Below, piece by piece: positions 39,742 through 64,000 of a stretch of DNA of 64,000 bases; within the stretch, counting starts at the first letter, position 1; each line of letters opens with the position of its first letter. Origin of the DNA: Candidatus Omnitrophota bacterium (GTDB lineage: Bacteria; Omnitrophota; Omnitrophia; Omnitrophales; Aquincolibacteriaceae). The position numbers were made by a program, and so were the translations under genes. The notes under the pieces are model-generated. The model saw only the letters and a list, made by a program, of their open reading frames with translations, had not been told where the DNA came from and searched no databases. Where the stretch lies: NCBI GenBank assembly GCA_035352955.1, contig DAOPYQ010000003.1:140901-204900 (forward strand), read 5' to 3'.

Positions 39742-42174
39742 TCAGGGAACCTTCGAGGAAGGTTTTTCTTTATCCTGATCGAGAAGAAGCTTGGAGCAAT
39801 AACTGTAAAGAAAACTCGCCCCGAGCAGAACAACGCCCAGCCCGACAAAGGAAATGATCCGGTAAGGCGTCTCGAGATTGCCGAAATCGTAGAAAAAAAG
39901 ACGGCAAAGCACCACGCCGAACATCCCAAGCCCGATCCAGCGATAGAGCTTCTCCCGCAGATAAAATCCCGTGAGAAGGAACCCTAAAGCGAGGACGCCC
40001 CAGATGATTGCGATCCAGGAGCTCAGTTTGGGATCATAAAAAAAGACCATCAAAAGCAGCGCTCCGATCACGCTAAGCCATTGAGACAAAGCCGGCACAT
40101 CTTTTTCTCCGGCAAGACCGGGCTGCCGGCGAAGCCATCCCCCCGTCGCGATCATCCCAAGAATTCCAAAAAAGACCGCGCTCAAACGGACGGCCACTTT
40201 AAGATCCGTAAAAATATTCAGAAGCGGCAGTCTGCCGTCGACCCCCGCGATCCGGATGGCGGCAAGACAAAAGAAGCACATCGACACCTTGCGCAAATCC
40301 ACCCGGGAGTCACGGACGCCGAGGAACATCAGGGCCATCCCGATCAAGACCCAGATCACGGAACTTGCGGCCTGAAGGCCGCCCCAATGACACCCAGCGG
40401 CAAACAAAACAAACGCGCCGATCAGAAACGCATCTTCGGACACCTCCCTTTCCTTGCCGGCGGGATAATCGCTTCTTTTATAAAAAAAGTAACACGCTCC
40501 GAACGCTAACGCGGCAACGGCATGGATCAAAAACATCGTCCGGAACGCAAAGAAGATCCGGAACAAAATCCCTGATTCCCAGTGGTCCACAAGCAATAGG
40601 CGGCACAAGATCATGGCCGCAAGAGCCCACCCCAACCGGTAAAGGATCATGCGCCGGTGCCGGACCCCAAGCCAGGTCAAAATGACAAGACCGCCGCTCC
40701 AGCCATAGGTTACGGAAGGACCGTGAAAATACATCGGTACCGCAAGCGAAAAAAGGGTCGTCCCGAACGCAAGATAGAGATCGCTGAAAAGTCCCAGGCC
40801 CCGTTTCTCTTCCCCGTAGGCAAGTGCAAGGAACACGAACCCCATCACGAGCGGAAACCAGTATTTCAAAGCCGGGTGGAAGGCGTGCAGATGGTACAGG
40901 TAGCTCGTGCAAAAGATCAGGTTATTGAGGAACAAAAGCCAAAAACTGATCTCCCGGTCCGCGGGTTTTTCGGTTTTGATAAAACCCATCGCGGCAAAAA
41001 GCATCCAGTAAAGCGCCAGGAACCCCTGGTGCAGAAGCGACTTCTGAAGCGGCATCCCGCCGGCGGCTCCGCCGCTGCCCCACGGCGAAATAAAAACCTG
41101 GTACCAAAAATCGGTGTTGGAAAAATCCCCGAAAAGACCCGCCGAAACCCACGCGTAATGAGTCAGATATACTGCGACAAGGCCGAGCAAGGCAAGCCAT
41201 GTCCAGCCCACGCGTTTTGCCACGATCACCGTGGAAACGCCGAGCAGGAACGATGCTGCAAGGGTGTAGGTCGTCACGCCCACCAGAGTGACCGCAACAT
41301 AGGCGAGAAAATAAGAAAAGAAAACGAGAACGGCCGACTTGAACTTCAGGGATTGAGTGATCGAACCAGACATAACGAATAGAAGGCAAATAAAGGCAAT
41401 GACCGGATCATGGATCACTCGGGTTGCCGCGATCTGGTAGGCCGCATAGACAACAAAATAAAGAATGGCCCAGCCGCCTCCGATAGTCGCCATACTCCAT
41501 CGCCGGTATTTCTCCTGCGATGATAAATAATTTCCAAAACCGATCAGCGCTCCCGCGAGAACCGCCCCGATCGCGAGTTTCCCCCAGGCTCCGATGAACT
41601 GGAACGAATAGCTGATAAAAAGAACGATCCCAAGCGCGAGCGTGAAAATTCCGGCCCGCGCAAGCCAGTATTTCCCGATACTACTTTCTTGCGTTTCCCC
41701 GGATCGCGGCGCCTTGGCACGCTCGGTCTCTTGATACGTCACCGCAGCCGTTCCCGAAGCAGCCTCCACCGCTCTCTCAGAAGTTGTTTGGGCGGCCAAG
41801 TCCCGGTAGGCCTCAGAATCCCTGACAGACGTGGATTGCGAAGCGCCTTCCCTCGCGGTCTCCAGGTCCTGGATCTTGGAAGACAGACGGCCGACCTCCC
41901 GCTTCAGACTCTCGAGCTCCTGCTCAAATGCCATGGCCAGCAGGACCTGGACACTCTCTTTGGTGCGTTCAACCCGGAGGACGAAACCGAGTTTTTCGAG
42001 ATCTTCCAGGAAAGAAAGGATTTGGGCAGAAGAAACCTGATTAAAGACGGCGATGTTATTTTTGGAGAGAAAATCCTTGATCCGGGCTTCCTCCCAGGAC
42101 TCCCGTTGACGGATCAAAGCGATCAATCCCGGATGGAACCAAAAGCGCTGAACGCCCTTCAAAACAAGCTGCAT
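39742..42174 (-). CDS. large polytopic membrane protein (DUF2339-like) with N-terminal soluble and coiled-coil region
   Basis: The first 100 aa are soluble, followed by a coiled coil (ELESLKREVGRLSSKIQDLETARE). After that come more than 20 predicted TM helices over 650 aa. Confidence 0.5.
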   Translation of the reverse strand: MQLVLKGVQRFWFHPGLIALIRQRESWEEARIKDFLSKNNIAVFNQVSSAQILSFLEDLEKLGFVLRVERTKESVQVLLAMAFEQELESLKREVGRLSSKIQDLETAREGASQSTSVRDSEAYRDLAAQTTSERAVEAASGTAAVTYQETERAKAPRSGETQESSIGKYWLARAGIFTLALGIVLFISYSFQFIGAWGKLAIGAVLAGALIGFGNYLSSQEKYRRWSMATIGGGWAILYFVVYAAYQIAATRVIHDPVIAFICLLFVMSGSITQSLKFKSAVLVFFSYFLAYVAVTLVGVTTYTLAASFLLGVSTVIVAKRVGWTWLALLGLVAVYLTHYAWVSAGLFGDFSNTDFWYQVFISPWGSGGAAGGMPLQKSLLHQGFLALYWMLFAAMGFIKTEKPADREISFWLLFLNNLIFCTSYLYHLHAFHPALKYWFPLVMGFVFLALAYGEEKRGLGLFSDLYLAFGTTLFSLAVPMYFHGPSVTYGWSGGLVILTWLGVRHRRMILYRLGWALAAMILCRLLLVDHWESGILFRIFFAFRTMFLIHAVAALAFGACYFFYKRSDYPAGKEREVSEDAFLIGAFVLFAAGCHWGGLQAASSVIWVLIGMALMFLGVRDSRVDLRKVSMCFFCLAAIRIAGVDGRLPLLNIFTDLKVAVRLSAVFFGILGMIATGGWLRRQPGLAGEKDVPALSQWLSVIGALLLMVFFYDPKLSSWIAIIWGVLALGFLLTGFYLREKLYRWIGLGMFGVVLCRLFFYDFGNLETPYRIISFVGLGVVLLGASFLYSYCSKLLLDQDKEKPSSKVP

Positions 42175-47216: not shown

Positions 47217-48342
47217 CGCAACCCCCCGGATATCGAAAGTCGGATGAGGGATAAAGTTTTTTGAAGACCTTCGTCATCCTACATCCTCCATCCTTCATCC
47301 TACTTGAGATTATCATATGTGTAAGAATATAGTCGGAAACGTCCGCAAGGGGCACCCCTTCCGGCCACCACACCCACCGGATCCCGCGTTCCCGTTTGAA
47401 CCAGGTCCACTGACGCTTTGCAAAATGGCGCGTGGTCTGTTTGATCTTTTCTTTAACCTCTCCCACGGTAGCCGCCGGCAGAACACCCGGACGACACCCG
47501 GTGCTTGACCTCGCGCCCACGGAATTTAACACCGGGTGTTGCTTGCCCGGGCCTGACGCGTTCCGCTTCAGGAATTCCAGCACTTCCTTATACCCCACTC
47601 CCTGTAACGCTGTCACGGAAAGTTTCTTCTTCGCCAGTCTTTCGACTTCGCGCACCAGTCCCCTGCGGAACATGCGATCCACTCGCTTGTTGATTTTTTG
47701 ATAGAGCGCCGGCCGGTCCCGGTGGATCCCGATCACAACCGGCTGGTAACCCAGCTCAACTAACCCCGGAGTTTTGGCGGACGATTTCGACGGCTTTTTA
47801 CCGGAAACAAGATAGATCTCAAGCGCCCTGATGATCCTCCTCTGATTATCAGGCCCGATGGCTTGGGCACGCTCCGGGTCGGCCTTCAGAAGGCGTTTGT
47901 AGAGTGCCGGAAGCCCCTTCTTTTGGGCCTCCGACTCAAGTTTCCTGCGGATCGCGGGATTGGCCCCCGGCTGAGGTGAAAGCCCCTCCAATAGAGCCCT
48001 GACGTAAAAGCCGGTCCCTCCGGCGACGATCGGAGTCTTCCCGTTCTTGACCACGTCCCGGATAGCTTTCAAGGCAAATTGGCGGAATTTAAAAACAGAA
48101 AAAGACTTCGTGGGCGGGACAAGATCGATCCCGTGGTGCGGCACACCGCGGCGCTCCTTGGCGGAAAGTTTCGCGGTCCCGATATCCATCCCCTGATAGA
48201 CCAGCATCGAATCCGCGGAGATCACTTCCCCGTTCATGCGCTTCGCCAAAGCAACGGCAAGATCCGATTTCCCCGACGCCGTGGGACCGACAATGAACAA
48301 GACCAAAGGCGGTATCAAAGTATCAAAGTGTCTCTGTGTCAA
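47206..48342 (-). CDS. miaA: tRNA dimethylallyltransferase
   Basis: The P-loop is FIVGPTASGKS. The IPP transferase motif is ISADSMLVYQGMDIGTAKLS. The TTG start called by the ORF track lies inside a palindromic repeat, so the true start is probably a few codons downstream. The C-terminal tail is encoded by heptamer repeats and overlaps hflX by 11 nt. Confidence 0.9.
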   Translation of the reverse strand: MTQRHFDTLIPPLVLFIVGPTASGKSDLAVALAKRMNGEVISADSMLVYQGMDIGTAKLSAKERRGVPHHGIDLVPPTKSFSVFKFRQFALKAIRDVVKNGKTPIVAGGTGFYVRALLEGLSPQPGANPAIRRKLESEAQKKGLPALYKRLLKADPERAQAIGPDNQRRIIRALEIYLVSGKKPSKSSAKTPGLVELGYQPVVIGIHRDRPALYQKINKRVDRMFRRGLVREVERLAKKKLSVTALQGVGYKEVLEFLKRNASGPGKQHPVLNSVGARSSTGCRPGVLPAATVGEVKEKIKQTTRHFAKRQWTWFKRERGIRWVWWPEGVPLADVSDYILTHMIISSRMKDGGCRMTKVFKKLYPSSDFRYPGGCDGR

Positions 48343-48350
48343 AGCTTTGA
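48311..48350. repeat. left arm of IVS-like palindromic element (GTATCA/GTGTCA units) flanking four-helix-bundle gene
   Basis: GGTATCAAAGTATCAAAGTGTCTCTGTGTCAAAGCTTTGA. It contains the perfect 12-nt palindrome TCAAAGCTTTGA. It shares the 15-mer GTATCAAAGTATCAA with the element at 50874-50944. Confidence 0.6.
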
Positions 48351-48731
48351 ACGAACCCCGCGAATGAATGCCATTAGGAGCAGGCCCAACTCACGCCGAC
48401 TTCTCTCAAGGATCTCATAATCAGCATCGCTTAAGTACGTCAGATCCCTCGAAAACTCGAGCAAATACTCCGACTCCACCAAGGATCGGTTGGCAATATT
48501 AAGGAAGTTCAAAAAATCCTTTTTGCTGACGCTCGCCTGTCCCTCAACAATATTCAAAGCAACAGAAAGTGCCGCACGCCGAAGCTGCGAAGTAATCCCA
48601 TATAACTCTTCGCGGGGAAACTCCTTTGTGAACCTGTAAACCGCCAGCGCATACTCATTCCCTTTTTCCCAAACCCTGAGTTTCTTATAGCCTTTTCCAC
48701 TCACCGGATTTCCTCTGACACCGAAAGACAT
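48339..48731 (-). CDS. four-helix-bundle protein (23S rRNA intervening-sequence protein family, TIGR02436-like)
   Basis: MSFGVRGNPVSGKGYKKLRVWEKGNEYALAVYRFTKEFPREELYGITSQLRRAALSVALNIVEG...SLVESEYLL matches the family signature (L.VW.KA..L...IY..T..FP..E.YGL.SQ.RRAA.S...NI.EG). The 28-aa extension in the ORF track reads through a repeat and is discarded. Confidence 0.85.
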   Translation of the reverse strand: MSFGVRGNPVSGKGYKKLRVWEKGNEYALAVYRFTKEFPREELYGITSQLRRAALSVALNIVEGQASVSKKDFLNFLNIANRSLVESEYLLEFSRDLTYLSDADYEILERSRRELGLLLMAFIRGVRSKL

Positions 48732-48746
48732 TGATACCCTGACACG
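48714..48746. repeat. right arm of IVS-like palindromic element flanking four-helix-bundle gene
   Basis: TCTGACACCGAAAGACATTGATACCCTGACACG. Its reverse complement carries GGTATCAA...GTGTCAG in the same order as the left arm at 48311-48350, giving an imperfect inverted repeat about 400 nt apart. Confidence 0.55.
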
Positions 48747-48747
48747 T

Positions 48748-50409
48748 TTACATACTTTCCGGCTGGGAGATGCCGAGAAGCGCGAGACCGTTGCGGAGAA
48801 CGATCCGTGTCGCATCGGCCAAAAGAAGACGCGCTTTCGTCAACTCCGGATCCTCGGACACGATGCGGTGACAGCTGTAGAACTTATGAAAACTCGCGGC
48901 AACCTGACGGAGATAATCGGAAAGACGATACGGCTCGAGCGCCCGGCTCGCCTGGATCAGAAAATCCGGGAATTGCGCGAGGCACCCGATCAGCTCCGCC
49001 TCTTCCGGTGCGGCAAGCAAGTCGAGTTTCACATGGGTCGTGATACTTTTCCCCGAAAACTTCAGCAAACTCGCGATCCTGGCATGGGCGTACTGGAGAT
49101 AAAAAACCGGATTCTCCTGGGACTGTTCTTTCGCAAGGTCCAGATCGAAATCGAGGTGGCTTTCCTGCCGCCGCATGACAAAAAAGAAGCGTGTCGCATC
49201 GACGCCGACCTCCTGATAAAGTTCACGCAGCGTGACAAATTCCCCGGCGCGCGTCGACATCCGAACCGGCTGACCTTTCCGGAAAAGCGTCGTGAGCTGG
49301 ACGATCCCGATATGGATGGCCTCCGGCGGATAACCGAGCGCCTGACACGCGGCTTTGAGGCGCGGGATATAACCGTGGTGGTCCGGACCCCAGAGGTTCA
49401 CGATCATGTTGTGGCCGCGTTCATATTTGGAGAGATGGTAAGCGATATCCGGCGCGAGGTAGGTGTATTCCCCCGTCGATTTGCGGACCACGCGGTCCTT
49501 GTCATCCCCGAAATCCGTGGAGCGGAACCAGAGCGCGCCTTCACTTTCAAAAAGATAGCCGCGCTCCTTCAGGACCTCGAGCGCGTGATCGACCGATTTT
49601 TTGACATAGAGCGTCTTTTCGCTGAAATAATGGTCGAAGTGGACATGCATCTTGGCGAGATCTTCTTCGATCCACGCCATCATGGTCTTGACCGCGTAAT
49701 GGCCGCAATATTCGACCGCCTTTTCTTCCGTTTCCTTTAAAAGAGAATCCTTCTTCTCTTTCTCGATGATCGTGCGGGCAATATCGCGGATGTATTCGCC
49801 CTGGTACCCGTCCTCCGGGAACGGCTTCTCGATCTCCAAGAGTTCGTTGTACCGGACCCACACGCTTTTCGCCAAAAGATTCATCTGGCGGCCGGCGTCA
49901 TTGAGATAATATTCCGGATGGACCGTATGGCCCGTGAACTTCAGGATGCGCGCGAGACAATCCCCCACCGCGGCCTGGCGGCCGTGCGCGATCGTGAGCG
50001 GCCCCGTCGGGTTCGCGCTCACAAATTCCAGGATAACTTTCTTTCCCTTGCCGAAAGCGGAACGGCCATAGTCCTCGTTCTTTTCATGGATCTCCACGAG
50101 GAGCGCTCCAAGATCTTCTTTTTTGAGAAAAAAATTGAGGAATGCGCCGCCGGCAAGCTCGATCTTTTCGACGGGCGACTTTTCGCCGGTCTTCGCGACG
50201 AGCATGGGAAGGAGGACGTTTGCGATATCCGCGGGTTTCTGGCGGGTCACTTTGGCGAGGCGGAAAGCGACATTGCACGCCAGGTCTCCGCGACCGGATT
50301 CTTTGGGCGGATGGAGATCATAACCGAAATCGGCCGGCTTGCTTACCCCCTGCCCGGCGCAATAGGCATCCACCACAGAATTGATAAGGTCTTCGATTTT
50401 TATTTTCAT
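48748..50409 (-). CDS. argS: arginine--tRNA ligase
   Basis: The N-terminal anticodon-binding domain is followed by the class I HIGH region (SANPTGPLTIAHGR) and C-terminal DALR. The true start is MKIKIEDLIN at 50409. The 24-aa extension in the ORF track reads through a GGATGAC repeat. Confidence 0.93.
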   Translation of the reverse strand: MKIKIEDLINSVVDAYCAGQGVSKPADFGYDLHPPKESGRGDLACNVAFRLAKVTRQKPADIANVLLPMLVAKTGEKSPVEKIELAGGAFLNFFLKKEDLGALLVEIHEKNEDYGRSAFGKGKKVILEFVSANPTGPLTIAHGRQAAVGDCLARILKFTGHTVHPEYYLNDAGRQMNLLAKSVWVRYNELLEIEKPFPEDGYQGEYIRDIARTIIEKEKKDSLLKETEEKAVEYCGHYAVKTMMAWIEEDLAKMHVHFDHYFSEKTLYVKKSVDHALEVLKERGYLFESEGALWFRSTDFGDDKDRVVRKSTGEYTYLAPDIAYHLSKYERGHNMIVNLWGPDHHGYIPRLKAACQALGYPPEAIHIGIVQLTTLFRKGQPVRMSTRAGEFVTLRELYQEVGVDATRFFFVMRRQESHLDFDLDLAKEQSQENPVFYLQYAHARIASLLKFSGKSITTHVKLDLLAAPEEAELIGCLAQFPDFLIQASRALEPYRLSDYLRQVAASFHKFYSCHRIVSEDPELTKARLLLADATRIVLRNGLALLGISQPESM

Positions 50410-53208: not shown

Positions 53209-56200
53209 CTATGCCGAGGCCGCGGTACGGCGCGCACCCGCGAGACTGGCGGTAAATTCCGTCAAAAGCGCGGTCACGCCCAATTCGTCCATAGACGCAA
53301 AATCGAGTTTGTGCAATTCAATAAAGTTATCGTCCAGCAGCTTGACAGCCGAACCGACCACGCAAGCCGTTTGCCCAAGGGCACCCGCCCCCGCCTTGAC
53401 GCGAAGAACACCGCTTTTCTTGCCCGCACGGATCCGACTGACCTCCGAAAGCTCCGGCACATTCCCGTCCGTGACAAAGGCCATCGGCACAACCTTCTGG
53501 TCGCGGACCCTGTTGAACCAGCCCAGGAGATCCGCCGCGTTTCTGAAATGCACGACCTTGAGGTTTTTATCCAGAACGTCCGTCGCACCGGCCGCAGCCA
53601 ACGCCAGCTTAAAGTTCAGCACGTCCGTATCCCGGACACCGACAAAGACCAGGTAGCCCGTCACCTTCGGGTCATGGCGAAATAGCGGCACCTCCGGCAA
53701 GATGTCCCTGACATCCGGAATTTTTGTCCGCTGGTCAATGACAACACGCTCGACGGAACTCGCCCAAGAACGGTCGATCAAGCGGACCGTCTCCGGCCGT
53801 GTCTTCCGGAGAGCTTCCGGCACCGGAAGGACCTCGCGGTAGTGAACCGTCCCGGCAAAAAGCTCCGGCAAGATCCTGAACCGATAGTCCGGAGAAGCGT
53901 AAAGCGTCGGAGACACCACACTCCCCGCCACCCCCCATGCCACCCGGATCTTCGTACTGAGACTGCTAAGGTCAGGCATCGCGATCTGCGGGATCACAAG
54001 CTTCTCGTTATCCATCCACAACTCGGCACGAAGTTTATTTTCCGTGCGTTGCGTTTTATTTCTCTTCAGAAGCGTAAGGATCGCTTCCCTGGTTTTTTCC
54101 ATACTGGCTATTTCACGAGCAAGCTTTACATAAGCATCATTCTTCGAAGCCAAGCTATGGGCGAGCACAGTTTCATATTCCCCGGTCCCATAAACACGTC
54201 CTCGATCACCGGGTCCTCCCGACACCACGATTCCGGAGCGTCGAGGCGGAATCCGCATGAGTTCTTCTTTTTTGACCTGAAGCTCAACACGCAGAACCTC
54301 GGAAAGCGTTTGCAACGATGAAAATGAGGAAGGATCGTTCAGCGCCTTCTGGAATTGCTGTTCCGGTACCGACCGCAATTCCATCCGGCCAAAGGGACCC
54401 TGGATATCGGCGCCCATATCTTCATTGACCTGGGCTGCATCATCGTCCGAACCGGACGAAGCGACAGCTTCCCTCGCGGCGCGTTCCGCCTCTTCACTCG
54501 CCACCATGGAACGATACGCCTTCACCGCAGCCACCGAAGCGGCCGTGTGGTACTTCTCCAATGCGGTTACAACCAGATCACTGATGGACCGGTCCTTCAA
54601 AGCTACGAGCAATGCGGGAAGGGCTTGGGTTGCGGCATGCCTTGAAAACATCGTGGCAGCCTTCCGGCGTCGCTCAAGGGACGCATCGGTCAGCCAAGGG
54701 ATCAGCCGCCCGACGATCTCGGTATCCCCGATCTCCCAAAGGGCCTCCGCGATCGCAAGCCACACATCGCCGGCCTTTTCGCTATCCAGAGCGCTATGCA
54801 ATGCGGACCCCACCGAGGGATCTGCGGAACCCATCGAGGGATCTTTTGTCATCGCCAACGCCGCGGCCGCAGCCTTCCGGCCCCGGTCATTCTCATTCCC
54901 CAATGCCGAGAAAAGTCCGGAAAACTCCTTTTTACTCCACAATATTCCGACCGCGATCTCCCGGGCCAAGCGATCGTTATCATTCAGAGCCGCAAGCACC
55001 AGAACAGGAATAACCTTGGGGTCATTGATTGCGCCGAGCGCTTTAAGCGCTTCGTAACGGATAGAAACCCGGCGATCCGTCGAAGCCCGGGCCAACACAT
55101 CCACCGCGCGCGGATCTCCGATCTCGCCAAGTTTTTTTGCCGCAGCGGTCCTGCGATCCTCACCGTAATGGTTGAACCAGCCGTCATAAAACTTCGGCTC
55201 CACATCGTTCATCGCTCTCCGGAGCTGATCTTCCTGAGCCCTTGCCGGCCGGAGTGGCGCACGGGACCCTGCATCCTTAGGAGCCTCCGCCGCACTTTCC
55301 TGCGGCATCGGACGGGAACCTTCCAGCGTGACCGTCAATTCGCCCGCTTTGCCCGCGGAAATAAGCGCGCCGTCAAAAGGTCCGCCACCACGCCCGTCGC
55401 CCACCGACTCATAAGTGGGATAAACTTGCGGGACCTCGACATAACTGACCTGAACCTGTTCTCCCCGGATCAAACAAGACCGGAGCGTATTGATCTCCGC
55501 ACCGTTCAAAACATTGTAGTTGCCCTTCGAGTCATTGATCCATTCGAAGTACCGTTGCATCTCCGTCAGCCGCGGGTCCCGAAGCCTCAACAATTCACCG
55601 GCCGCCTGGATCCTTACCAAAGAATCCGTATCGCCGAGGATCCCCACGAGAGCCAGAGACGCCTTTGTCCCGAGAGCTTTGACCACGGCGATTCTCACCT
55701 CGGACGATGGGTCCTTCAAGGCCTTCGTCAACCTCATGATCGCATACGTATCCTCCATCGCGACAAATTGAGCAAGGTCCTGCGCCGCAGAAACTCTGCG
55801 TTTGATGCCATTTTTTACAAAGATACGGTCCCAAACCTGCGGCTCCAGAGAATCCACAAGGGCTTCATAAGCCTCACGCGCCTCACGGTCACGCACGTCA
55901 TCGGGAAGACGGTTGTCATCCTGATCGATATACCTTCCCCTCAATTCCGCTCGGGAAGACTCATCGCCATCCGCACCGTTAAGGTTTGCTTCGCTTGCTC
56001 GCTCGCGCTCAGCATCGGCATATTGTTGGATTTCATCCATAACCTTATAACCTTGGCGCCGAACAGGCTGTGCGAAACGGGCCATTAAAGCTCTTGAACC
56101 CGGCCGATCAATGGTCCATACACGGAAAGTCCTAGATACTTCAAACCCCCCCTCTCTTTTAGACATGTCCTGTGCTTTATCAACCAACGCCAAGGCTTCC

Positions 56201-59200
56201 GAAAGCGAAATATCCGGAGCTTCTGTCATAATGCTATCGAGGATAGGATTCTGGCGCCGCTGCTCAGCTATCAACTGACGTTCTTCCCCGGCAAGTTTCG
56301 CGGCACGGACACGTTCGCGCACTTTGCTTGTGATCCACCCGGCAATACCACCCACCACAGCTGACGCGACGGCAAAACCCGCGATCATAAGAATCTGATG
56401 TTCGCTCCAGGCCGTCTGCAATGAGCTGGCGACACCCGCCGCACCGTTTTGTCCCGCCATAAGAGCCAGAGGAAAAGGATTCATCAGTGGATGAGTGCTA
56501 CTACTTCTCCCATCTTCTCCGGGTCTAAACTGACCCTCATCATCCGAACTGGTGGTTTCATTAATTGCCGATTCACGCTCCCGGGCGATCTTTTTTTCTT
56601 CGACATATTCTGCATACCTTGCCGGCTTTAAAAGACGCCAAAAAACCGGGATCATAAAATTCGCAGCTGCCGCAAAGGCCACGGCGGCAGCGACACCCAT
56701 CGCAAATGCAAGCAGGATCGTCTCGGCGCGTAAGAAAGCCGGAACGGTTACCATCAAGTAGACGCCAAGAACAACCCCTGTCGCAAAGCCAACAAACCCG
56801 CTAATCACCGAGCCCATCACGATAGTATCCTCGGGTGTTCGTTGTTTCGCCTGGATACCGGACGAGTCTTGATCCTGCATCGCGGAGCGACGTTCGGAAC
56901 GAGGTGAGATATAGCTGGAGTTCAAGAGTGTTCTGATTTGGTCGGGTGTAAATTCGTTCTGAAAATCGGTGAACGTTTTAACACCCGGTGCGGCGTAGGT
57001 GGCCGAAAAACTATCGAGCCAGGGCTGATAATTGACCTGAAAACCAAGCACAGATAGATACCTCTGCGTGTAAAATGCCATGGACGCCTGGCTCAACTGA
57101 GCCTTGGCAAAACCTGTCAATAAGCCCTGGGATTCCAGACCGCTCAGAGCCACGCCGTTAAATTCGCTTGTAAAGGCAGAGTAAGGCCGCCATCCGTAGT
57201 TGGGCTCGATGTAATAGGGCGCAACACCGCTCACCCACCCCAGCGACGCCTCCACATACCCGCGGGCAAAGAGGTATTCGTGAATAAAATTGGACATCGC
57301 GGGGAAATCCCTCTGAGCCAGGTCAAACCGCGTCGCCTCATCGATCGGCAGAACCTCGCGGGTGCTCAGATTGACCTTTTTGAACATGGAAAGCGAGGTC
57401 CTGATGATGGCATATCCCGGCATCAACGTCAGGTCCACGGGATTGAGTGACGCTTCGGCAAACCGTGAATCCACGATCCAAGTGGCCGCGCCGGTGACAA
57501 GATCGACAATGCGTATTTGCGGATCCAATCCGGTTCCCGCCCGGACCTGATCAAAGATCAGCGTCTTCCCGTCTGGAGTAATGTAATAATTGAAAATGTA
57601 ACCCAAGGGAACGGAGGGTCCGCGGGTCCACGACATCAGATAGATCTCCTGACCGGTCAGGAGATTCTTGATATAGTGATCGGTCCCATTGTACCGGTCA
57701 CGACTCTGAACGGCAAAATTCGGATCGACCTCAAGCCTCTCCCACCAATTCGGCAACGCCGGAGGGACAAACACCACACGCGCGAACTCCTGTTTACCTG
57801 AAGCGGCCGTTGAAAAATGCAAAGTCTGAGCGTTGGTGGCCGGCTGGATCTCCCCCGCGATCCAATTTGTCGCGGGAAGCGTGGGAGAAGTCATGACCTG
57901 GTAATTCCCGTGCAAAGACACCTCTGCCGTTATTTGGCCCGGGCCTTTGATCCCGGTAACAATATCTCCAAACGCCGAAGCCCCCATGAGTCCCGCCGCA
58001 AGGGCCAGCGGAAGCGCATAATAGTCCCCGACCCCCGGTCCCGAATAACCGCTATCCGAAGGTCCGTCATCATCGTCCGACGCGGCAATCTGCGCCTCTC
58101 GCTCTGCCCTTTCTCTCTTTCGCTCAGCTTCCAAAACTTCCTGATTTGCTTTATAACTTTTCGGGTCGAACAATCTCCAAAACCCGTCGCAGATTAGCGC
58201 CCCCGCGATCGCGCCCATAAACGCCAAAAAAAGACTCCCAAAGATTGCCGCCAGAAAAAAATCCTTTATCCCACCCGCCATGACCACGAAAGGCAACATA
58301 TGCGGTTGATGAAAAAGCAACGGTACGGCAGAAACGACCCCGAATAACGGACCGCCGAATAAAAAGACTTCATACCAAAGACCGAGCCGGCCGCGTAAAT
58401 GCACCTGTCTTTCAGCAACCGTCATCGGCTTCCGCAGCTCCGCACGATCACTCCCGGCACTCTTTTTGAGAGAACGGCTAAGCTTGTTCAGTTCAAAATC
58501 CACCTGCTCGCGGCTCCTCCTATGCGAAAAGATCGCGGCCAGCTTCCCTTCAAAATCTTTCATATCCTGTTGACGGGCCCCGGAACCAAGCGCCTTAAAA
58601 CCGGCCGAACGGATATAATCCCGCCATACTTCGTAGGCGTGGTCCGAATTCACCTTTGCGTATTTGGGAAGGGCTACAAGAAAACCTTCAAGAAGCGCAC
58701 GCTCATCTTCGGAAAGGTCCGCCCAGGCACGCGAATTCAGCAGCGTCGTAAGGGCGTCCACATGAGGATCAAGTCTGGCAATATTTTTCTCCGTTGCCCA
58801 GAATGCTTTCCATACGGCCAGTAAGGCGGCCTGTTCTACATTCCCCCGGGCATTACGGTATCCCGCGGTTTCCTTGAAACGGAGGAACCGTTCGGCATCA
58901 CTCTCATCCATGAATTGGGAGAAAGGAACGCCCACCAATTTTTCCGCCGGCAAACCCACCTTGTAATTGGCCGCATCACCGCTTCCGGCACGCAAGCGCG
59001 CGTCTCTTTCGTCGAATGTCCGGCGACGATTTCTCTGGGCTTCCGTCAGCCTGCGTTCGGCGCGATCAACCGCACTATCGCGCAGCTCCGCCCTGATCTT
59101 CTGGGTAACTTTTTTAGAAGAAGGCTTCACCTGGAAACGGTTATCCTGATACTCCGCCATCTGCCGGAGCGGCGTGACATGGCCGGCGCGTTTAAAATCA

Positions 59201-62200
59201 TGAATCAGATCGCCCTGACCCGCCACATAGGCTTCGTACGGGTTGTAATAAGTTTCGCGATAGAGGATCCCCTCATCCAGCAACCGGTCATTTTTCGCCA
59301 TCAATGCGATCGAACGCACCCCGGGAATCGTGGTCGCGTTCCCGGACGCCGTGTTCGGCGCGATCACGTCCCCCGCCTGCCCGGACCGTTGCGCCAGCAC
59401 CTGGATGACCATCGGAAGTTCAGGAAGCCCATCGGCATTGTCAAGCATCCGGTCCATCAGTTCTTCCGCGTTCGCGATCTGATACAGCTTGTTATAGGGA
59501 TCATCCTGCAATCCCGTTTCCGCCTTCACCCGCTGTTTGAGCTTCCGGCGAAGCCGCTGGGCATCCTCGGATTTCAACTGATCGCCTTCCACCAATGCGG
59601 AAAAAGGCTCCGGAATTTCTTCACTCCCGTACTCGAGCCCGCCCTTCTCCCCCGTAAAATTCTGGAGGACGACGTGAGCGGAATTCGCTTTCATGGTCTT
59701 CCGGAAATATTTGTACGCCGCGTGAGGCCGGGAGCCCGCCGCAGATACCGGATCCAGGAGCGTCAGGTCATTGACCCGGTGGATCGCGAAAGAACGGCCG
59801 CCTTTTTTCAGAAGATACCGGAACGCCGGGACCGCCATGATCCGGAAATCTCTTTCGGCGTCATCCCACCTGTACGACATGTACGGCAAAGATGCGTAGA
59901 TCAGATTGAACCCGTGGTTGTAGCTTTTGTCGTTACGCATGTAACTGAAGACGAAACGCTTCTCGGCATCGCGCCATTCAAACCCGCTCGGCTCGTCGTC
60001 ATTCATCACAAAAACAATATTTTCTTTGTCTAGTCCGAAAAACTGGTTCTCTTTAAAATCCCTGGCCACATCGTCCTTGATGTTCGGATTCACGCTGATG
60101 AAAACCTTTTTGCTCGCAAGGGCGTTTCGAACCAAGGCCTCTGTCACGGTCTGATCCACCCCCTCATGCCGCGCGTACTCGACGGCCTGCCTGCGGATCC
60201 CCTCGACCAACGCCAGCATATGCCGTACCCCGAGCCCAAGATGCCGGGCATTCTCCGGAACCGGCCGTTCCGCTTCCGCGATATAGATCCCGAGTTCTTC
60301 GACCTCTTCGGTCAGCCGGTCGTATTCATCCCCGGAAAGTTCAGGGTCCGAATCTTTCGCGCGATTGAATTTCTTGCGCTCTTCCTTAACGCGCTTGAGT
60401 TCCGCCTGAAGGCGGGCCAATTCTTCTTCCTCTTTGGCGTCGTCGATCTTGTTCTCGAGATCCTCCTGCGCCATCTTGAGATCGAGGTAACGGGATATCT
60501 CAGCGCCAAGATCCGTCTCGAGAATCCGGAGACGGGTTTTCTGTTTTCTCTTTTCAGCCTCGAGAGCCGTCTTATGCTCCTTAAGAAGGCGTATCACTTC
60601 CCAAACGTCAAGGTTCCACATCCTGAATTTCCTGACCGTGACGGGATCCTTTTCGTTCTCCTTCGAAATAATGCCGATCTTGACAAAGCTCTTAAAGAGA
60701 CGGTCCGCCTTCCCGGCGGCATAGATGAATTCGGCCTTGATCCCCGAAACCGCATCCTTGGCCGCATGCCAGTAATATTCCTCAGGGACATCCTCCATCC
60801 ATTCGACATGCCCCGGCTTGATCAACCCTTTCTTGCTCTCGAACTCGCGAGCGTTCATTTTCCCGGCTGGAATTGAGGGATCATAAAATTTTTTCAGGAC
60901 CTCATGCATGTTCAGGCGGATCGGTGCCGTCTTCCGGGCGGACACTTCAAAAATCTTGTATTCGATCTCGTCCGACCACCGGACGTCATTGCTGCGAATC
61001 ACCCATTCGCGGGCCGCATACTGGATCGCCGCTCCGGCGAGGAGGGCCGCTTTCTCGTAGGGCTTCATCGTCTCAAAGCCGGGGTGCAAAACCACGATGG
61101 CATTGCGATAAACGTTCACGACCGAATCCGCGCTCTCACCCACGCGGTACACATGGTCCAGCACTTCGACATTCAACCGTTTGAAAGCTTCGTACACGTT
61201 CACGGGAACGGAAGTCCCGGGAATGACCACGTTCAAGCCCTCCAAAAAAGGCGCAACTTCGGCCGCAAGCTTTTGCTGGGCTTCTTTCTTCTTCCCGGCG
61301 TCGCCCGGTTCGCTGTTCTCAAAAATGATGTCCAAGTTCTGGATCATATCAAGCGCCGCCGCGGCGTTCGCCTGAAGCTGCACACGATTAACCTCTTGAT
61401 ACGCGGAAAAAAGAATATCCAGCAGGATCCGCCGTTTTTTCAAATGCTCCGTCTCATAATATTCCTTGTAAAGAGCCACCACAGCCGCCGGATCGTTGCG
61501 TTTCTCCAGAAGGTCCTGGACTTCGTACCCGAGCACTTGGCCCAGGAACCAGCGGGCCGCCGACCGCGCATCCGCATAACCCGAATAAAGCAGAACACGC
61601 GCGTCCTCAGCCATGATCGTTTTCACGGGATCCGCGACGGACTGATAGCTTTTCCAAACATCCCCCGCCCGGTCATCCTTCCCGAAAAACCGCTCCATTT
61701 TGTGATTACGATGGTGGGACGGATCTTTCGGAAAATATTCGATCTTCCCACGTCGTTCCGCGCGGGAGCTGACAGTCGCCAAAGCCTTCGAAGAGATCGG
61801 CACGGTCTGGAAAACGGGAATGCCAAAATCAGGACTAAGATCGAGAGACGTTGAAAAACCGTTGCGGGAAGAAACAGGCTCGACGCTGATCCTTTCCAGA
61901 ATCGACCGGCGGACACCGCCGAACCACGCCTGGGCCTGATCGATCCCCGTCACGGCGACACGCTGGGCGCGGTCAACGACCCCGAGCAGCGCATTCATCT
62001 GAGAGGTTTCGAAATCGCGCGAGCCTAAAATGGAATGGAGATAGACCTCATGGTCGCGTTTGGAGACTTCACTGATACGCGGAGTGATCTGGAGATAGGA
62101 ACAATTCCTCGCCCGCGCGAGAGCCTTAAGACCCTCGGCGTGGAACCCGCCGGTCACGATCACGGCGCGCTGCTGCTTCGTCTCGCCCATTTTGATAAGG

Positions 62201-63696
62201 GCATTACAGAACATTTTCTGTTCGCGAATGACCGCTGTTTCATAAAAACTCATCGCCGAACGATAAAGGGAAGCAACTTCTCCGGATAACGGATAACGGA
62301 TAACGGATGACGTTGCCACCCCGTTGTTCGTCACCCGACCTCCAGCCTCCGGCATCCGGTTATGAAGCTCTTCATATTCCGCGCGTGTCAGTTCTAAGGA
62401 AAACAGCCGCTTCAACAGATAAAGCTGCCGGGCCGCGGCGAGACATTCCTTGTCGGCCGGCGTTTTTGCCAAAGCGTTTTCGATCCCGTCTTTCAGGCGC
62501 ACGATCTCCTCCTGGAGGCCCTGGCCTTCTATCTCCTGCATCAGAATGACATGCTGGGAATAAAGGGCCCAGTTTGGCCAACGATCCATGGAGAAATCCT
62601 TCGGGAGTTTCTCGAAGGCATTGTCGAACGCCCGGCGCAACGGCGAATAGTCACCGCCGGACATGGGAAGACGGAAGGTGGATGAAGCTTTGGTTTTTAC
62701 GCCCTCCTCCATCCTCCATCCGCTGCCCTGCCTGAAGAGGTCCAGAATCTCCTTCGAAATATTCCGCTTCTCAAGCTCTTTAAGAAAATCCTCCGATTCT
62801 TTCATCGCCTTTTCACGGTCGATCCCGGAACCAATGGCCTGGAGACGGTAATAGCGAACGAGCGAAGGATATTCGCTCTGATAGAATGCATCCGAGAGGT
62901 CCTGCTTCAGGTGCTTCTTCCCCGCTTCTCCGAGAACTTTAAGCCATGCCTCGAAAGACAAGGCTCCGGAGCCGAAAGCCTCCTCCTGGCGGACGATCTT
63001 CAAAAGATCTTTATTCAGTTCCCCAGCGAACTTTTTGTCGACCTCGGCGCGGAGCTGCCTCAGAAAGGCCTGCGCGTTCTTGTCGGATTTCACGACCGAA
63101 ATGAATGCGTCGCGGTCCTTTTTATAAGCATCGAGATCTTCAATGCCGTACGCCTTGAAATCGGCGGATGGAGCCTTCGTCATTCGCTTTGCGTTATCCG
63201 TCTTCCGATAGGCTTCATCCTGGTTAATGAGAAAATTCTCAGGCCCCGAAAGATAGCCTTCGGCGACCAACTTGTCCGTGACCTTGTGGTTAAAATCGGG
63301 CTGCTCCGGAAAAATACGGAACATTTCGGGGTGCAGCTTCCCGGACGCGCCTTCGAGAAGCATCAATTTGACGGAAGAGTTCTTTTCGATGTACCCGAGG
63401 AGTTTTTCGATATTCTTTTCCGCCTGATAATTCCCGTGCGCGGACTGGATGTGAATGAATGCGGGGGCCGAAGGATCCCCTTTGAATAAACCGCTCACCC
63501 GGCCCAATTCCGCAGGGATCTGGAGGGTTCCCGCGACAGACGCCGACACTTCGGCCGCAGAGACACCCGTCGATGCGAAGCCGTTAGGATTCCAGACGAT
63601 GGAGGTAACCGTAAAGGTGATGACCGTAATGAGGGCGATCAACGACTTATTTCTCTTCAAGACCGGATCGGGGTGGAAAGAGGTTTCTCTCGTCAT
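53209..63696 (-). CDS. giant (about 3,495 aa) signal-anchored multi-domain protein: TraB/TIKI-like N-domain, coiled coil, two internal TM modules, beta-rich region, HEAT/PBS-lyase repeats, conserved C-terminal domain
   Basis: A 10.5 kb uninterrupted ORF, paralogous at both ends to giant gene 1. Probable start is MTRETS at 63696, with AAGGA 13 nt and AAGG 4 nt upstream of the ATG. The ORF track start at 63759 reads through an upstream palindrome. Motif coordinates: FIHIQSAHGNYQ (about 63420); VIVTGGFHAEG (about 62160); HEAT repeats (about 54600-55800); TM modules (about 58150-58450 and 56300-56900). Confidence 0.85.
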   Translation of the reverse strand: MTRETSFHPDPVLKRNKSLIALITVITFTVTSIVWNPNGFASTGVSAAEVSASVAGTLQIPAELGRVSGLFKGDPSAPAFIHIQSAHGNYQAEKNIEKLLGYIEKNSSVKLMLLEGASGKLHPEMFRIFPEQPDFNHKVTDKLVAEGYLSGPENFLINQDEAYRKTDNAKRMTKAPSADFKAYGIEDLDAYKKDRDAFISVVKSDKNAQAFLRQLRAEVDKKFAGELNKDLLKIVRQEEAFGSGALSFEAWLKVLGEAGKKHLKQDLSDAFYQSEYPSLVRYYRLQAIGSGIDREKAMKESEDFLKELEKRNISKEILDLFRQGSGWRMEEGVKTKASSTFRLPMSGGDYSPLRRAFDNAFEKLPKDFSMDRWPNWALYSQHVILMQEIEGQGLQEEIVRLKDGIENALAKTPADKECLAAARQLYLLKRLFSLELTRAEYEELHNRMPEAGGRVTNNGVATSSVIRYPLSGEVASLYRSAMSFYETAVIREQKMFCNALIKMGETKQQRAVIVTGGFHAEGLKALARARNCSYLQITPRISEVSKRDHEVYLHSILGSRDFETSQMNALLGVVDRAQRVAVTGIDQAQAWFGGVRRSILERISVEPVSSRNGFSTSLDLSPDFGIPVFQTVPISSKALATVSSRAERRGKIEYFPKDPSHHRNHKMERFFGKDDRAGDVWKSYQSVADPVKTIMAEDARVLLYSGYADARSAARWFLGQVLGYEVQDLLEKRNDPAAVVALYKEYYETEHLKKRRILLDILFSAYQEVNRVQLQANAAAALDMIQNLDIIFENSEPGDAGKKKEAQQKLAAEVAPFLEGLNVVIPGTSVPVNVYEAFKRLNVEVLDHVYRVGESADSVVNVYRNAIVVLHPGFETMKPYEKAALLAGAAIQYAAREWVIRSNDVRWSDEIEYKIFEVSARKTAPIRLNMHEVLKKFYDPSIPAGKMNAREFESKKGLIKPGHVEWMEDVPEEYYWHAAKDAVSGIKAEFIYAAGKADRLFKSFVKIGIISKENEKDPVTVRKFRMWNLDVWEVIRLLKEHKTALEAEKRKQKTRLRILETDLGAEISRYLDLKMAQEDLENKIDDAKEEEELARLQAELKRVKEERKKFNRAKDSDPELSGDEYDRLTEEVEELGIYIAEAERPVPENARHLGLGVRHMLALVEGIRRQAVEYARHEGVDQTVTEALVRNALASKKVFISVNPNIKDDVARDFKENQFFGLDKENIVFVMNDDEPSGFEWRDAEKRFVFSYMRNDKSYNHGFNLIYASLPYMSYRWDDAERDFRIMAVPAFRYLLKKGGRSFAIHRVNDLTLLDPVSAAGSRPHAAYKYFRKTMKANSAHVVLQNFTGEKGGLEYGSEEIPEPFSALVEGDQLKSEDAQRLRRKLKQRVKAETGLQDDPYNKLYQIANAEELMDRMLDNADGLPELPMVIQVLAQRSGQAGDVIAPNTASGNATTIPGVRSIALMAKNDRLLDEGILYRETYYNPYEAYVAGQGDLIHDFKRAGHVTPLRQMAEYQDNRFQVKPSSKKVTQKIRAELRDSAVDRAERRLTEAQRNRRRTFDERDARLRAGSGDAANYKVGLPAEKLVGVPFSQFMDESDAERFLRFKETAGYRNARGNVEQAALLAVWKAFWATEKNIARLDPHVDALTTLLNSRAWADLSEDERALLEGFLVALPKYAKVNSDHAYEVWRDYIRSAGFKALGSGARQQDMKDFEGKLAAIFSHRRSREQVDFELNKLSRSLKKSAGSDRAELRKPMTVAERQVHLRGRLGLWYEVFLFGGPLFGVVSAVPLLFHQPHMLPFVVMAGGIKDFFLAAIFGSLFLAFMGAIAGALICDGFWRLFDPKSYKANQEVLEAERKRERAEREAQIAASDDDDGPSDSGYSGPGVGDYYALPLALAAGLMGASAFGDIVTGIKGPGQITAEVSLHGNYQVMTSPTLPATNWIAGEIQPATNAQTLHFSTAASGKQEFARVVFVPPALPNWWERLEVDPNFAVQSRDRYNGTDHYIKNLLTGQEIYLMSWTRGPSVPLGYIFNYYITPDGKTLIFDQVRAGTGLDPQIRIVDLVTGAATWIVDSRFAEASLNPVDLTLMPGYAIIRTSLSMFKKVNLSTREVLPIDEATRFDLAQRDFPAMSNFIHEYLFARGYVEASLGWVSGVAPYYIEPNYGWRPYSAFTSEFNGVALSGLESQGLLTGFAKAQLSQASMAFYTQRYLSVLGFQVNYQPWLDSFSATYAAPGVKTFTDFQNEFTPDQIRTLLNSSYISPRSERRSAMQDQDSSGIQAKQRTPEDTIVMGSVISGFVGFATGVVLGVYLMVTVPAFLRAETILLAFAMGVAAAVAFAAAANFMIPVFWRLLKPARYAEYVEEKKIARERESAINETTSSDDEGQFRPGEDGRSSSTHPLMNPFPLALMAGQNGAAGVASSLQTAWSEHQILMIAGFAVASAVVGGIAGWITSKVRERVRAAKLAGEERQLIAEQRRQNPILDSIMTEAPDISLSEALALVDKAQDMSKREGGFEVSRTFRVWTIDRPGSRALMARFAQPVRRQGYKVMDEIQQYADAERERASEANLNGADGDESSRAELRGRYIDQDDNRLPDDVRDREAREAYEALVDSLEPQVWDRIFVKNGIKRRVSAAQDLAQFVAMEDTYAIMRLTKALKDPSSEVRIAVVKALGTKASLALVGILGDTDSLVRIQAAGELLRLRDPRLTEMQRYFEWINDSKGNYNVLNGAEINTLRSCLIRGEQVQVSYVEVPQVYPTYESVGDGRGGGPFDGALISAGKAGELTVTLEGSRPMPQESAAEAPKDAGSRAPLRPARAQEDQLRRAMNDVEPKFYDGWFNHYGEDRRTAAAKKLGEIGDPRAVDVLARASTDRRVSIRYEALKALGAINDPKVIPVLVLAALNDNDRLAREIAVGILWSKKEFSGLFSALGNENDRGRKAAAAALAMTKDPSMGSADPSVGSALHSALDSEKAGDVWLAIAEALWEIGDTEIVGRLIPWLTDASLERRRKAATMFSRHAATQALPALLVALKDRSISDLVVTALEKYHTAASVAAVKAYRSMVASEEAERAAREAVASSGSDDDAAQVNEDMGADIQGPFGRMELRSVPEQQFQKALNDPSSFSSLQTLSEVLRVELQVKKEELMRIPPRRSGIVVSGGPGDRGRVYGTGEYETVLAHSLASKNDAYVKLAREIASMEKTREAILTLLKRNKTQRTENKLRAELWMDNEKLVIPQIAMPDLSSLSTKIRVAWGVAGSVVSPTLYASPDYRFRILPELFAGTVHYREVLPVPEALRKTRPETVRLIDRSWASSVERVVIDQRTKIPDVRDILPEVPLFRHDPKVTGYLVFVGVRDTDVLNFKLALAAAGATDVLDKNLKVVHFRNAADLLGWFNRVRDQKVVPMAFVTDGNVPELSEVSRIRAGKKSGVLRVKAGAGALGQTACVVGSAVKLLDDNFIELHKLDFASMDELGVTALLTEFTASLAGARRTAASA

Positions 63697-63735: not shown

Positions 63736-64000
63736 CAAGAATCTGAAAAAGGTTAACACGCACTGATGGTTTTGAACAGAGGTTGACGCAAAAAAATCTT
63801 TATAAATCGTTTAGTGGTAAAGAGAAACCGCTTCCCTTGAACTTCCCGGTTTTTAAAATGAAGAAATGGGACATGAAAACCCGATTTATAGCATCTTCTA
63901 ACAATTAAAAATTCACGACGCTACAATGAAGTCCGTTATGCCGACTTGCACTTGCCCCTGTCGGGCAAGTACTAACGACATACGGACCAATGAAGTCCGT

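Follow-up and report, generated by a model that had tools for sequence, protein, structure and literature searches.

The gene described here lies in a 64,000-nucleotide (nt) stretch of a Candidatus Omnitrophota assembly (GCA_035352955.1, contig DAOPYQ010000003.1, positions 140,901 to 204,900), hereafter the window, and encodes on its minus strand a very long product that we call protein 2; protein 1 is the product of the second long open reading frame (ORF) of the window (5,120 amino acids, aa; 21249-36611, minus strand). Our analysis favors, with some reservation, the view that protein 2 is a single mosaic chain embedded in the membrane, in which a pair of duplicated membrane modules would act as anchors and arrays of HEAT repeats as scaffold. 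According to this view, a fixed frame composed of a signal-peptide-like start, a head domain that defines the family, and a tail of ~270 aa would enclose fast-changing interior units, each of which ends in the pentapeptide R-[A/S]-E-x-R, which we refer to as the junction motif. The proposed order of the units is a helical stretch with a pyrophosphorylase-fold domain, a short helical unit, two units each led by a membrane module, a HEAT unit, a short unit, and then the tail. Residues of protein 2 are numbered throughout from the GTG codon of the stop-to-stop ORF (nt 63759), and subtracting 21 gives the numbering from the probable start, Met22; all features are collected in Table 1.

The first-pass annotation of this DNA had read an internally duplicated membrane module into the middle of protein 2, and such a duplication is indeed found there. 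The string FWRLFDPKSY at aa 1860 (nt 58182) in copy 1 corresponds to FWRLLKPARY at aa 2373 (nt 56643) in copy 2; in both copies an acidic patch follows (ASDDDDG at aa 1893 and TTSSDDEG at aa 2402, respectively), and then PLALAAG (aa 1917) or PLALMAG (aa 2430), with the distance from FWRL to PLAL being 57 aa in either module. Upstream, the junction motif precedes FWRL by 88 aa in copy 1 and by 86 aa in copy 2, and the first helix is found 22 aa after junction motif 4 and 21 aa after junction motif 5, respectively. Local alignment of residues 1801-1928 to residues 2322-2441 yielded a score of 90, with 35% identity over 117 aa, compared to 30±4.8 for free shuffles (z=12). Taken alone, this alignment would be modest evidence for duplication. 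When it is combined with the collinear motifs and their identical 57-aa spacing, with the absence of FWRLxxPxxY elsewhere in 1.3 Mb of related loci, and with an orthologous ORF, that of locus L026, in which the module's second half recurs (RERAERE, ASSSDDEP, PLPLLALAGG and GIKLP, followed by a transmembrane helix; hidden Markov model E 1.5e-4), a true duplication is argued for, and the two modules can be regarded as confirmed paralogous copies as far as sequence comparison allows. The estimate of three to four helices per module was roughly right, as hydropathy analysis gives two strong helices and a weak PLAL segment in each copy, with one more strong helix in copy 2 alone (aa 2454-2476), bearing a strongly basic C-terminal flank. 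The hydrophobic segments of the whole protein on the Kyte-Doolittle scale are aa 39-57, 1798-1852, 2313-2373 and 2454-2476, and "membrane-insertion module" would be a reasonable label for the duplicated unit. Homology searches added little to this picture: neither aa 1770-2480 nor aa 1937-2291 had a significant homologue in an index of 5.8 billion proteins, peptide patterns from protein 2 scanned over the GTDB genomes and JGI metagenomes returned no relative, and the matches of the modules to DUF2062, MetI and MscS (E 0.01-0.9) were dropped, being mutually inconsistent and probably compositional.

The HEAT/PBS-lyase-type repeats announced for the C-terminal third of the protein are also there. 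HEAT_2 (PF13646) matches protein 2 over four stretches with 83.3 bits (cut-off 27.7; E=1.6e-23), HEAT (PF02985) and HEAT_PBS (PF03130) score 24.7 and 24.5 bits against cut-offs of 23.5 and 20.9, respectively, and alphaRep/PBS-HEAT chains of the PDB match the protein at 6.6e-27. By eye, ~9-10 hairpins can be counted in two blocks, separated by a 125-aa insert that is not HEAT. A bilin lyase identity was considered and rejected, as the NCBIfam model for NblB gave 31 bits where 300 are required and those for CpcE/CpcF gave 16-17 against 220-330; with CpeY included, the scores on protein 2 range from 11 to 31 bits for cut-offs of 220-600. Two further claims stood in part. A beta-rich segment exists, but it is found at aa 2029-2098 (its two strings start at 2029 and 2082), in the stretch that separates the membrane modules, and not at residues 1780-1950 as first reported; it falls within the only part of protein 2 where beta propensity exceeds alpha propensity (aa 1937-2100, by the crude Chou-Fasman method). 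This beta-prone region showed no internal repeat above chance and no sequence match in Pfam or the PDB, and its suggested identity as a beta-propeller is not supported by its sequence. Farther into the same orphan region, aa 2132-2214 have one homologue, a unit of locus L008 headed by a lipobox signal peptide (41% identity, E 2e-10). Similarly, where a coiled coil had been placed at residues ~1000-1100 there is a highly charged helical stretch (aa 1060-1165), but heptad periodicity was not shown, as a heptad score of our own gave no distinction between the real sequence and shuffled ones.

The statement that protein 2 carries no catalytic signatures, on the other hand, did not hold. A HMMER search with aa 620-1770 retrieved 43 proteins, many of them 3 to 7.7 thousand amino acids (kaa) in length, which share a ~400-residue domain corresponding to aa 1140-1545 of protein 2 and present two or three times in some long Omnitrophota chains. 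The AlphaFold2 (AF2) model of this domain has a predicted local distance difference test score (pLDDT) of 83.8 and a predicted template-modelling score (pTM) of 0.83, and the top 50 hits in a Foldseek search of the PDB with this model were all UAP, UGP or USP enzymes (probability 1.00, E 4e-8 to 2.5e-6). In an alignment of 20 sequences of the domain, H143, R189, N191, D192, K233, E252 and N284 (A1 numbering) are invariant, and D382 and K384 nearly so. When the domain profile was compared to PDB sequences, the six best matches were UDP-N-acetylglucosamine pyrophosphorylases (UAP), aligned at FFG(L/F)..N(I/V)V, with marginal E values of 0.06-0.5, and the order of motifs in the domain (FFGL, NHG, NDL, KGG, PYN, DFK) is one that we take to parallel the signature motifs of UDP-sugar pyrophosphorylases. 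The Pfam family PF01704 matched neither protein 2 nor 10 homologues of the domain. Judging by the modelled fold, this domain is probably a nucleotidyl transferase. Two tandem units of this pyrophosphorylase-like type were also seen in P0012 (locus L005, the whole 20.5-kb contig of GCA_043808175.1), a 6,825-aa fragment truncated at both contig ends that also holds a homologue of the HEAT unit of protein 2, together with ~19 densely clustered hydrophobic segments; the transmembrane cluster that follows a junction motif in P0012 is not homologous to the membrane module of protein 2 (z<2).

A second enzyme-like part of protein 2 is its head domain, which keeps IQxAH, EG and GGxH invariant in 10 members of the family, protein 1 included. 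Proteins 1 and 2 had been described as two paralogues; what they have in common, however, are the N-terminal ~570 aa only (25% identity, E 1.5e-32) and perhaps the tail, the remainder being unrelated. For the C-terminal region of protein 1 and the tail of protein 2, similarity was not significant (z=0.6) and the last residues alone are alike. Of the 10 head-domain members, seven were matched by the ChaN family (PF04187), with a best E value of 0.0023, and the Pfam score is 13 bits against a cut-off of 27.7; this weak match aside, Pfam searches of six segments of protein 2 at E<=10 returned only noise. The model of the head domain (pLDDT 70, pTM 0.60) has an alpha/beta core, and in a fold search of the PDB none of the hits was significant, those with the highest probability being 3b55, 2g5g (ChaN) and 6xcs (EreC), with probabilities <=0.30 and E>0.6; all three are members of the Tiki/TraB/ChaN/erythromycin-esterase superfamily. 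The head domain possibly belongs to this superfamily, which we regard as no more than a lead. An EF-hand in the same domain was rejected, as the matches to troponin C and calmodulin (E 0.02-0.4), read residue by residue, lack the calcium-ligand positions. Protein 1 itself gave just two Pfam matches, a weak one to PRTase-CE (E 5.8e-4) and one to an HD domain (E 1.3e-5), and has few hydrophobic segments.

The frame formed by head and tail recurs across the phylum. Close homologues of the N-terminal 600 residues (55-63% identity) come only from Omnitrophota metagenome-assembled genomes (MAGs), and a profile scan for the head domain in one genome per GTDB species yielded 494 relatives, often with several copies per genome, of which 80 related loci were kept, all named records being Omnitrophota MAGs or single-amplified genomes (SAGs). 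In orthologous loci, the head domain opens a single ORF of 2.3 to >4 kaa; the tail (protein 2 aa 3250-3516) is 30-36% identical in L002, L006, L010, L014, L016, L019 and L026, and NadE and Ogt are often encoded downstream of these head-to-tail ORFs, as in the window. From one species to another, conservation does not extend to the interior that head and tail enclose. The very ends of three long proteins look alike (..ARRTAASA in protein 2, 53212-53235; ..SVRTAA in protein 1, 21252-21270; ..EARMATSA in the L002 gene, 18857-18880) and could represent a C-terminal signal.

Within this frame, junction motifs mark the unit borders. The pattern R[ASM]E[LR][RW] occurs at eight sites in protein 2, where 0.06 would be expected, and when all six frames of the window were scanned with the wider pattern R[ASMT]E[LRMVI][RW], only protein 2 (the same eight sites) and protein 1 (two sites in its 5,120 aa, at 22730 and 22088, near the C-terminus) were found to contain it. 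A stricter form, R[AS]E[LMVI]R, was counted in the stop-to-stop ORFs of the window and the related loci, giving 243 occurrences in the 222,348 residues of ORFs of at least 1500 aa (2 in shuffles), 27 in the 92,530 residues of ORFs of 500-1499 aa (1 in shuffles), and two in the 273,706 residues of ORFs of 150-499 aa (5 in shuffles). RSE(V/L/M)R, preceded by small residues, is the most frequent form, and the median spacing is 327 residues. Because codons differ between copies, it is the peptide and not the DNA that is conserved, and because methionine is not enriched after the motif, internal translation starts are argued against. The motif ends the head domain in most orthologues, lying 56-210 aa past GGFH in ~32 of 42 ORFs, and in the AF2 model it sits in a low-confidence tail after the pyrophosphorylase-like domain. 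Homologous units in different proteins are delimited by it, as in the case of protein 2 residues 724-1562 and P0012 residues 4671-5465 (P0012 motifs at 4658 and 5459), or of residues 2840-3135 and 4039-4402 (P0012 motifs at 4031 and 4392). From the last motif to the C-terminus there are 273 aa in protein 2 and 272 aa in L002. Internal transmembrane clusters begin 0-70 aa after the motif in 23 of 126 cases, compared to 9.9±2.8 at random placement (2.3x).

As to how such a chain might be arranged in the cell, the membrane modules would be the anchors that lead their units, each of them opening with a basic stretch and a helix hairpin, continuing through FWRLxxPxxY and a charged helix, and closing with an acidic Ser/Asp patch and PLALxAG, and they would pin the chain in the cytoplasmic membrane and set the side on which the following piece lies. 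Based on flank charges, each module would form a hairpin with both ends in the cytoplasm, the charged helix and acidic patch would be cytoplasmic as well, and the PLALxAG segment may cross the membrane. The beta-prone piece after copy 1 would then probably be outside the cell membrane, a location that fits its homologue in the lipoprotein-like L008 unit. The extra helix of copy 2, with its very basic C-flank, would return the chain, so that the HEAT arrays and the tail are probably cytoplasmic, the former possibly serving as protein-binding surfaces. By analogy with what has been published on this class of proteins, a cell-surface or host-contact function appears likely.

Several of our results weigh against this anchor-and-scaffold arrangement. 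The number of helices in an uncut chain gives opposite orientations for the two paralogous modules, and the proposed topology works only if the two module units insert independently, because an uncut chain would invert module 2 relative to module 1. The membrane helices, moreover, are predicted from hydropathy and flank charges, and the transmembrane hairpin half of the module had no homologue in the 5.8-billion-protein index, in the GTDB/JGI pattern scans or among the related loci. With block shuffles of 8-20 residues, which keep local composition, the significance of the module duplication decreases to z=3.0-4.3, and one of 500 block-8 shuffles scored 94, above the observed 90. In the case of the enzyme-like domain, the match to UDP-sugar pyrophosphorylases is by fold only, with a TM-score of ~0.4, a silent PF01704 and a glycine-rich loop altered to GLGxRH, and a signal peptide would place this nucleotidyl-transferase-like domain outside the cell. 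Nucleotides are scarce there. The same paradox of cytoplasmic-type enzyme domains placed outside is remarked upon in the literature on Omnitrophota giant proteins. Lastly, at 3.5 kaa, protein 2 is below the published giant sets (at least 10 to >85 kaa), for which the length cut-offs are >=10,000 aa (Nielsen & Lui 2026, 10.64898/2026.06.07.730766) and >30,000 aa (West-Roberts et al. 2023, 10.1101/2023.11.21.568195).

Alternatively, protein 2 might be a polyprotein, cut at or near R-[A/S]-E-x-R, or by signal peptidases I and II wherever a signal peptide lies inside the chain, or in both ways, with units that act separately and membrane modules that are the N-terminal anchors of two separate products. 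We consider this explanation possible, but less probable than an intact chain. An equal orientation of the two modules, in fact, is possible only if the units insert independently, and the motif is ~120-fold enriched and confined to long ORFs, selected as a peptide, located in linkers, and found at protein-sized intervals. In a relative (GCA_040767405.1, L002 11927-12010), the head domain is a separate 649-aa gene that ends in ..SRAELRQD-TAG, just at the motif, and 19 sense codons, without a change of frame, separate it from the next gene (2,291 aa), an arrangement seen alike in four independent assemblies. Lipoprotein- and Tat-type signals, which normally function only at the N-terminus, are also found inside the long ORFs: six internal lipoprotein-type signal peptides were counted, compared to none in shuffles, and four of the six sit 7-50 residues after a motif. 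Finally, one Omnitrophota preprint asks whether giant proteins are cleaved and states that the cleavage points are unknown. Against cleavage stand the lack of an identified protease, the head domain being only weakly linked to the Tiki protease superfamily, and the lack of proteomic evidence; moreover, the flanks of the motif are unconserved beyond small residues at -1 and -2, only 18% of internal transmembrane clusters follow a motif, protein 1 has only two motifs in its whole length, and the motif might just as well serve for docking or be left over from a gene fusion. That R-[A/S]-E-[L/M/V/I]-R is functional punctuation, at which a dedicated protease or signal peptidases divide the product into separately targeted units, is a tentative proposal.

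With regard to the loci just mentioned, the split-gene arrangement of L002 was also seen in L001, L003, L004 and L010, where one stop codon divides the equivalent of the window's single ORF, and the downstream 2,291-aa protein of L002 has cytidylate kinase, CofD, NTP-transferase and guanylate kinase domains and no hydrophobic segment. The internal lipoboxes are at aa 2585 in L008, at aa 80, 401 and 1859 in two ORFs of L011, at aa 1282 in L034 and at aa 1818 in L060, and one of the signals carries a twin-arginine motif (MNRRQFLAG..GGC).

Two other explanations appear improbable. The likeness of the modules might have arisen by convergence or from a shared hydrophobic, charged and acidic composition instead of duplication, and the drop in significance upon block shuffling, with one shuffle in 500 reaching the observed score, is what such an origin would lead one to expect. 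Composition would not, however, readily account for collinear motifs with FWRL and PLAL 57 aa apart in both copies, for a FWRLxxPxxY string found nowhere else in the related loci, or for a linker, acidic and PLAL half that is conserved in another species, and we thus find convergence difficult to accept. Hardly easier to defend is the suggestion, made in the first-pass annotation, that protein 2 has no catalytic role and serves as a scaffold or adaptor, having diverged from an enzymatic paralogue, protein 1. In its favor are the confirmed HEAT arrays, which could act as a scaffold, and the lack of any Pfam enzyme family above threshold in protein 2. Against it, protein 2 contains a UDP-sugar-pyrophosphorylase fold with invariant polar residues, the head domain with its conserved His/Glu/His is the very part that the two proteins share, and outside of it they are unrelated.

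Protein 2 is encoded by a single ORF without interruption, from 63759 to 53209 on the minus strand. Its probable start is the ATG at nt 63696 (Met22), which is favored because an AAGGA-like site with an AT-rich spacer lies upstream and because P0011, the same gene in another assembly, begins at the same Met22. The N-terminal segment that follows has the appearance of a signal peptide, and the A-x-A-like small-residue site after its hydrophobic stretch (aa 39-57) is conserved in the alignment of orthologues. P0011 has one G fewer in the G-run at window ~57262 (cgcGGGtat), which results in a frameshift and an end at 2,178 aa, and this deletion could have arisen in sequencing or else be a true variant that inactivates the gene. 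The truncated copy is the one finding that would suit an artefact (mis-assembly, a pseudogene, or adjacent genes joined by a sequencing error), which we regard as very improbable, given that the ORF of the window stays open for 1,350 codons beyond that point, with the HEAT and tail domains in frame, and that a single ORF running from head to tail is likewise present at the orthologous loci of many species.

Table 1. Features of the protein 2 gene in the 64,000-nt window, ordered from the start of the gene; amino acid positions are counted from the GTG at nt 63759.
Feature	Window position (nt)	Strand	Basis or remark
Coding sequence of giant protein 2	53209..63696	minus	3,495 aa from Met22; stop codon 53209-53211; stop-to-stop ORF to nt 63759
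Signal-peptide-like N-terminal segment	63574..63696	minus	basic stretch, hydrophobic aa 39-57, small-residue (A-x-A-like) site; hydropathy, flank charges, alignment
Head domain (aa 63-650)	61810..63573	minus	only part shared with protein 1; IQxAH, EG, GGxH
Junction motif 1, RAERR (aa 666-670)	61750..61764	minus	pattern scan; end of head domain
Highly charged helical stretch (aa 1060-1165; 1039-1144 from Met22)	60265..60582	minus	AF2 helix in modelled part
UDP-sugar-pyrophosphorylase-fold domain (aa 1140-1545)	59125..60342	minus	profile, alignment, AF2 model, Foldseek
Junction motifs 2 and 3, RAELR (aa 1556-1560) and RAERR (aa 1566-1570)	59080-59094, 59050-59064	minus	low-confidence linker after enzyme-like domain
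Junction motif 4, RAELR (aa 1772-1776)	58432..58446	minus	before membrane module 1
Membrane module, copy 1 (aa 1777-1936)	57952..58431	minus	helix hairpin, FWRLFDPKSY, charged helix, acidic Ser/Asp patch, PLALAAG
Orphan region between modules (aa 1937-2286), first half beta-prone	56902..57951	minus	propensities, homology searches
Junction motif 5, RSERR (aa 2287-2291)	56887..56901	minus	before membrane module 2
Membrane module, copy 2 (aa 2292-2480)	56320..56886	minus	helix hairpin, FWRLLKPARY, charged helix, acidic patch, PLALMAG, extra helix
Junction motif 6, RAELR (aa 2603-2607)	55939..55953	minus	before HEAT unit
HEAT block A (aa 2650-2735, ~3 hairpins)	55555..55812	minus	Pfam, by eye
HEAT block B (aa 2860-3075, ~6-7 hairpins, PBS-lyase/alphaRep type)	54535..55182	minus	Pfam, PDB match, by eye
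Junction motif 7, RMELR (aa 3125-3129)	54373..54387	minus	flank DMGADIxGPFGRxExR conserved in P0012
Junction motif 8, RAELW (aa 3244-3248)	54016..54030	minus	273 aa before C-terminus
Tail domain (aa 3249-3516), conserved, ends ..RTAASA	53212..54015	minus	alignments with relatives

The neighbors of the gene in the window are of the housekeeping type, namely NadE, Ogt, ArgS, MiaA, HflX, a transaldolase-PGI fusion, an amidase, PFOR and NrdD. Between miaA and argS (48339-48815, minus strand) lies a member of the "23S rRNA intervening sequence protein" family (PF05635, E 5e-32), and at 40001-42000, where an 810-aa DUF2339 membrane protein is encoded, the AT skew reaches +0.27, compared to values within ~±0.16 elsewhere.

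For the Omnitrophota, a long protein with a repeated membrane module and HEAT repeats is nothing unusual, spaced transmembrane helices and HEAT_2 arrays being the features most often reported for their long proteins. What our results add is that assignment by fold reaches much of the "dark" interior, where a divergent UDP-sugar-pyrophosphorylase-like family missed by Pfam is present in many long Omnitrophota proteins, and that the frame of head, variable interior and tail provides a handle for comparing proteins that are otherwise unalignable. The junction motif, in turn, gives testable positions for the open question of whether these products remain one chain or are cut, and where, and it can be used to split long proteins prior to structure prediction. 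If the junctions were cleavage sites, the published Velamenicoccus archaeovorus enrichment proteomes could be searched again for termini at the motif; if the punctuation reading were true, "giant genes" would be operons free of stop codons, and protein 2 would give ~8 products, two of them membrane proteins with a duplicated anchor. The motif strings are not mentioned in the literature searched, and linkers or processing sites do not appear in the sections searched of the two Omnitrophota preprints.

Comparison to known systems helps place the individual parts of protein 2. Its pyrophosphorylase-fold domain is like the UDPGP family (UAP1/AGX1, UGP, USP) in fold and in its six best profile-to-PDB matches; it differs from that family in its low identity (10-16%), in having the loop GLGxRH where the family has GGxGTxxG, and in being embedded in long proteins with up to three copies per chain. 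With the Tiki/TraB/ChaN/EreC proteins, the head domain would share an alpha/beta core in which strand 2 is followed by an invariant His, strand 3 by a Glu and a late strand by GGxH, whereas a ~320-aa helical insert separates its halves and all matches are below the family thresholds. The repeat type is that of PBS-lyase HEAT-like proteins (CpcE/CpcF, NblB; alphaRep), but the array in protein 2 is one unit of a membrane protein and is split by an insert. The long proteins of the Omnitrophota are described as poorly conserved, with transmembrane helices spaced along the chain, enzymes of cytoplasmic type arranged in tiles, and HEAT_2 more frequent than any other domain (10.1101/2023.11.21.568195; 10.64898/2026.06.07.730766; Seymour et al. 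2023, PMC10066038). SecA_DEAD, C39 and S8, which are frequent in the published giants, as well as dockerin and glycosyl-hydrolase domains, gave no Pfam match in protein 2 (whole protein at E<=1, segments at E<=10). What defines protein 2 instead is its combination of head, tail and junction pentapeptide, features of which the two preprints make no mention in the sections and for the terms searched. It nonetheless resembles the giants (Archaeovorin-type and multi-enzyme) in phylum, putative signal peptide, scattered predicted transmembrane helices, HEAT_2 arrays, cytoplasmic-type enzyme domains, a poorly conserved and mostly unannotated interior and housekeeping neighbors, and it is a small relative of the long membrane-anchored mosaic proteins of the Omnitrophota.

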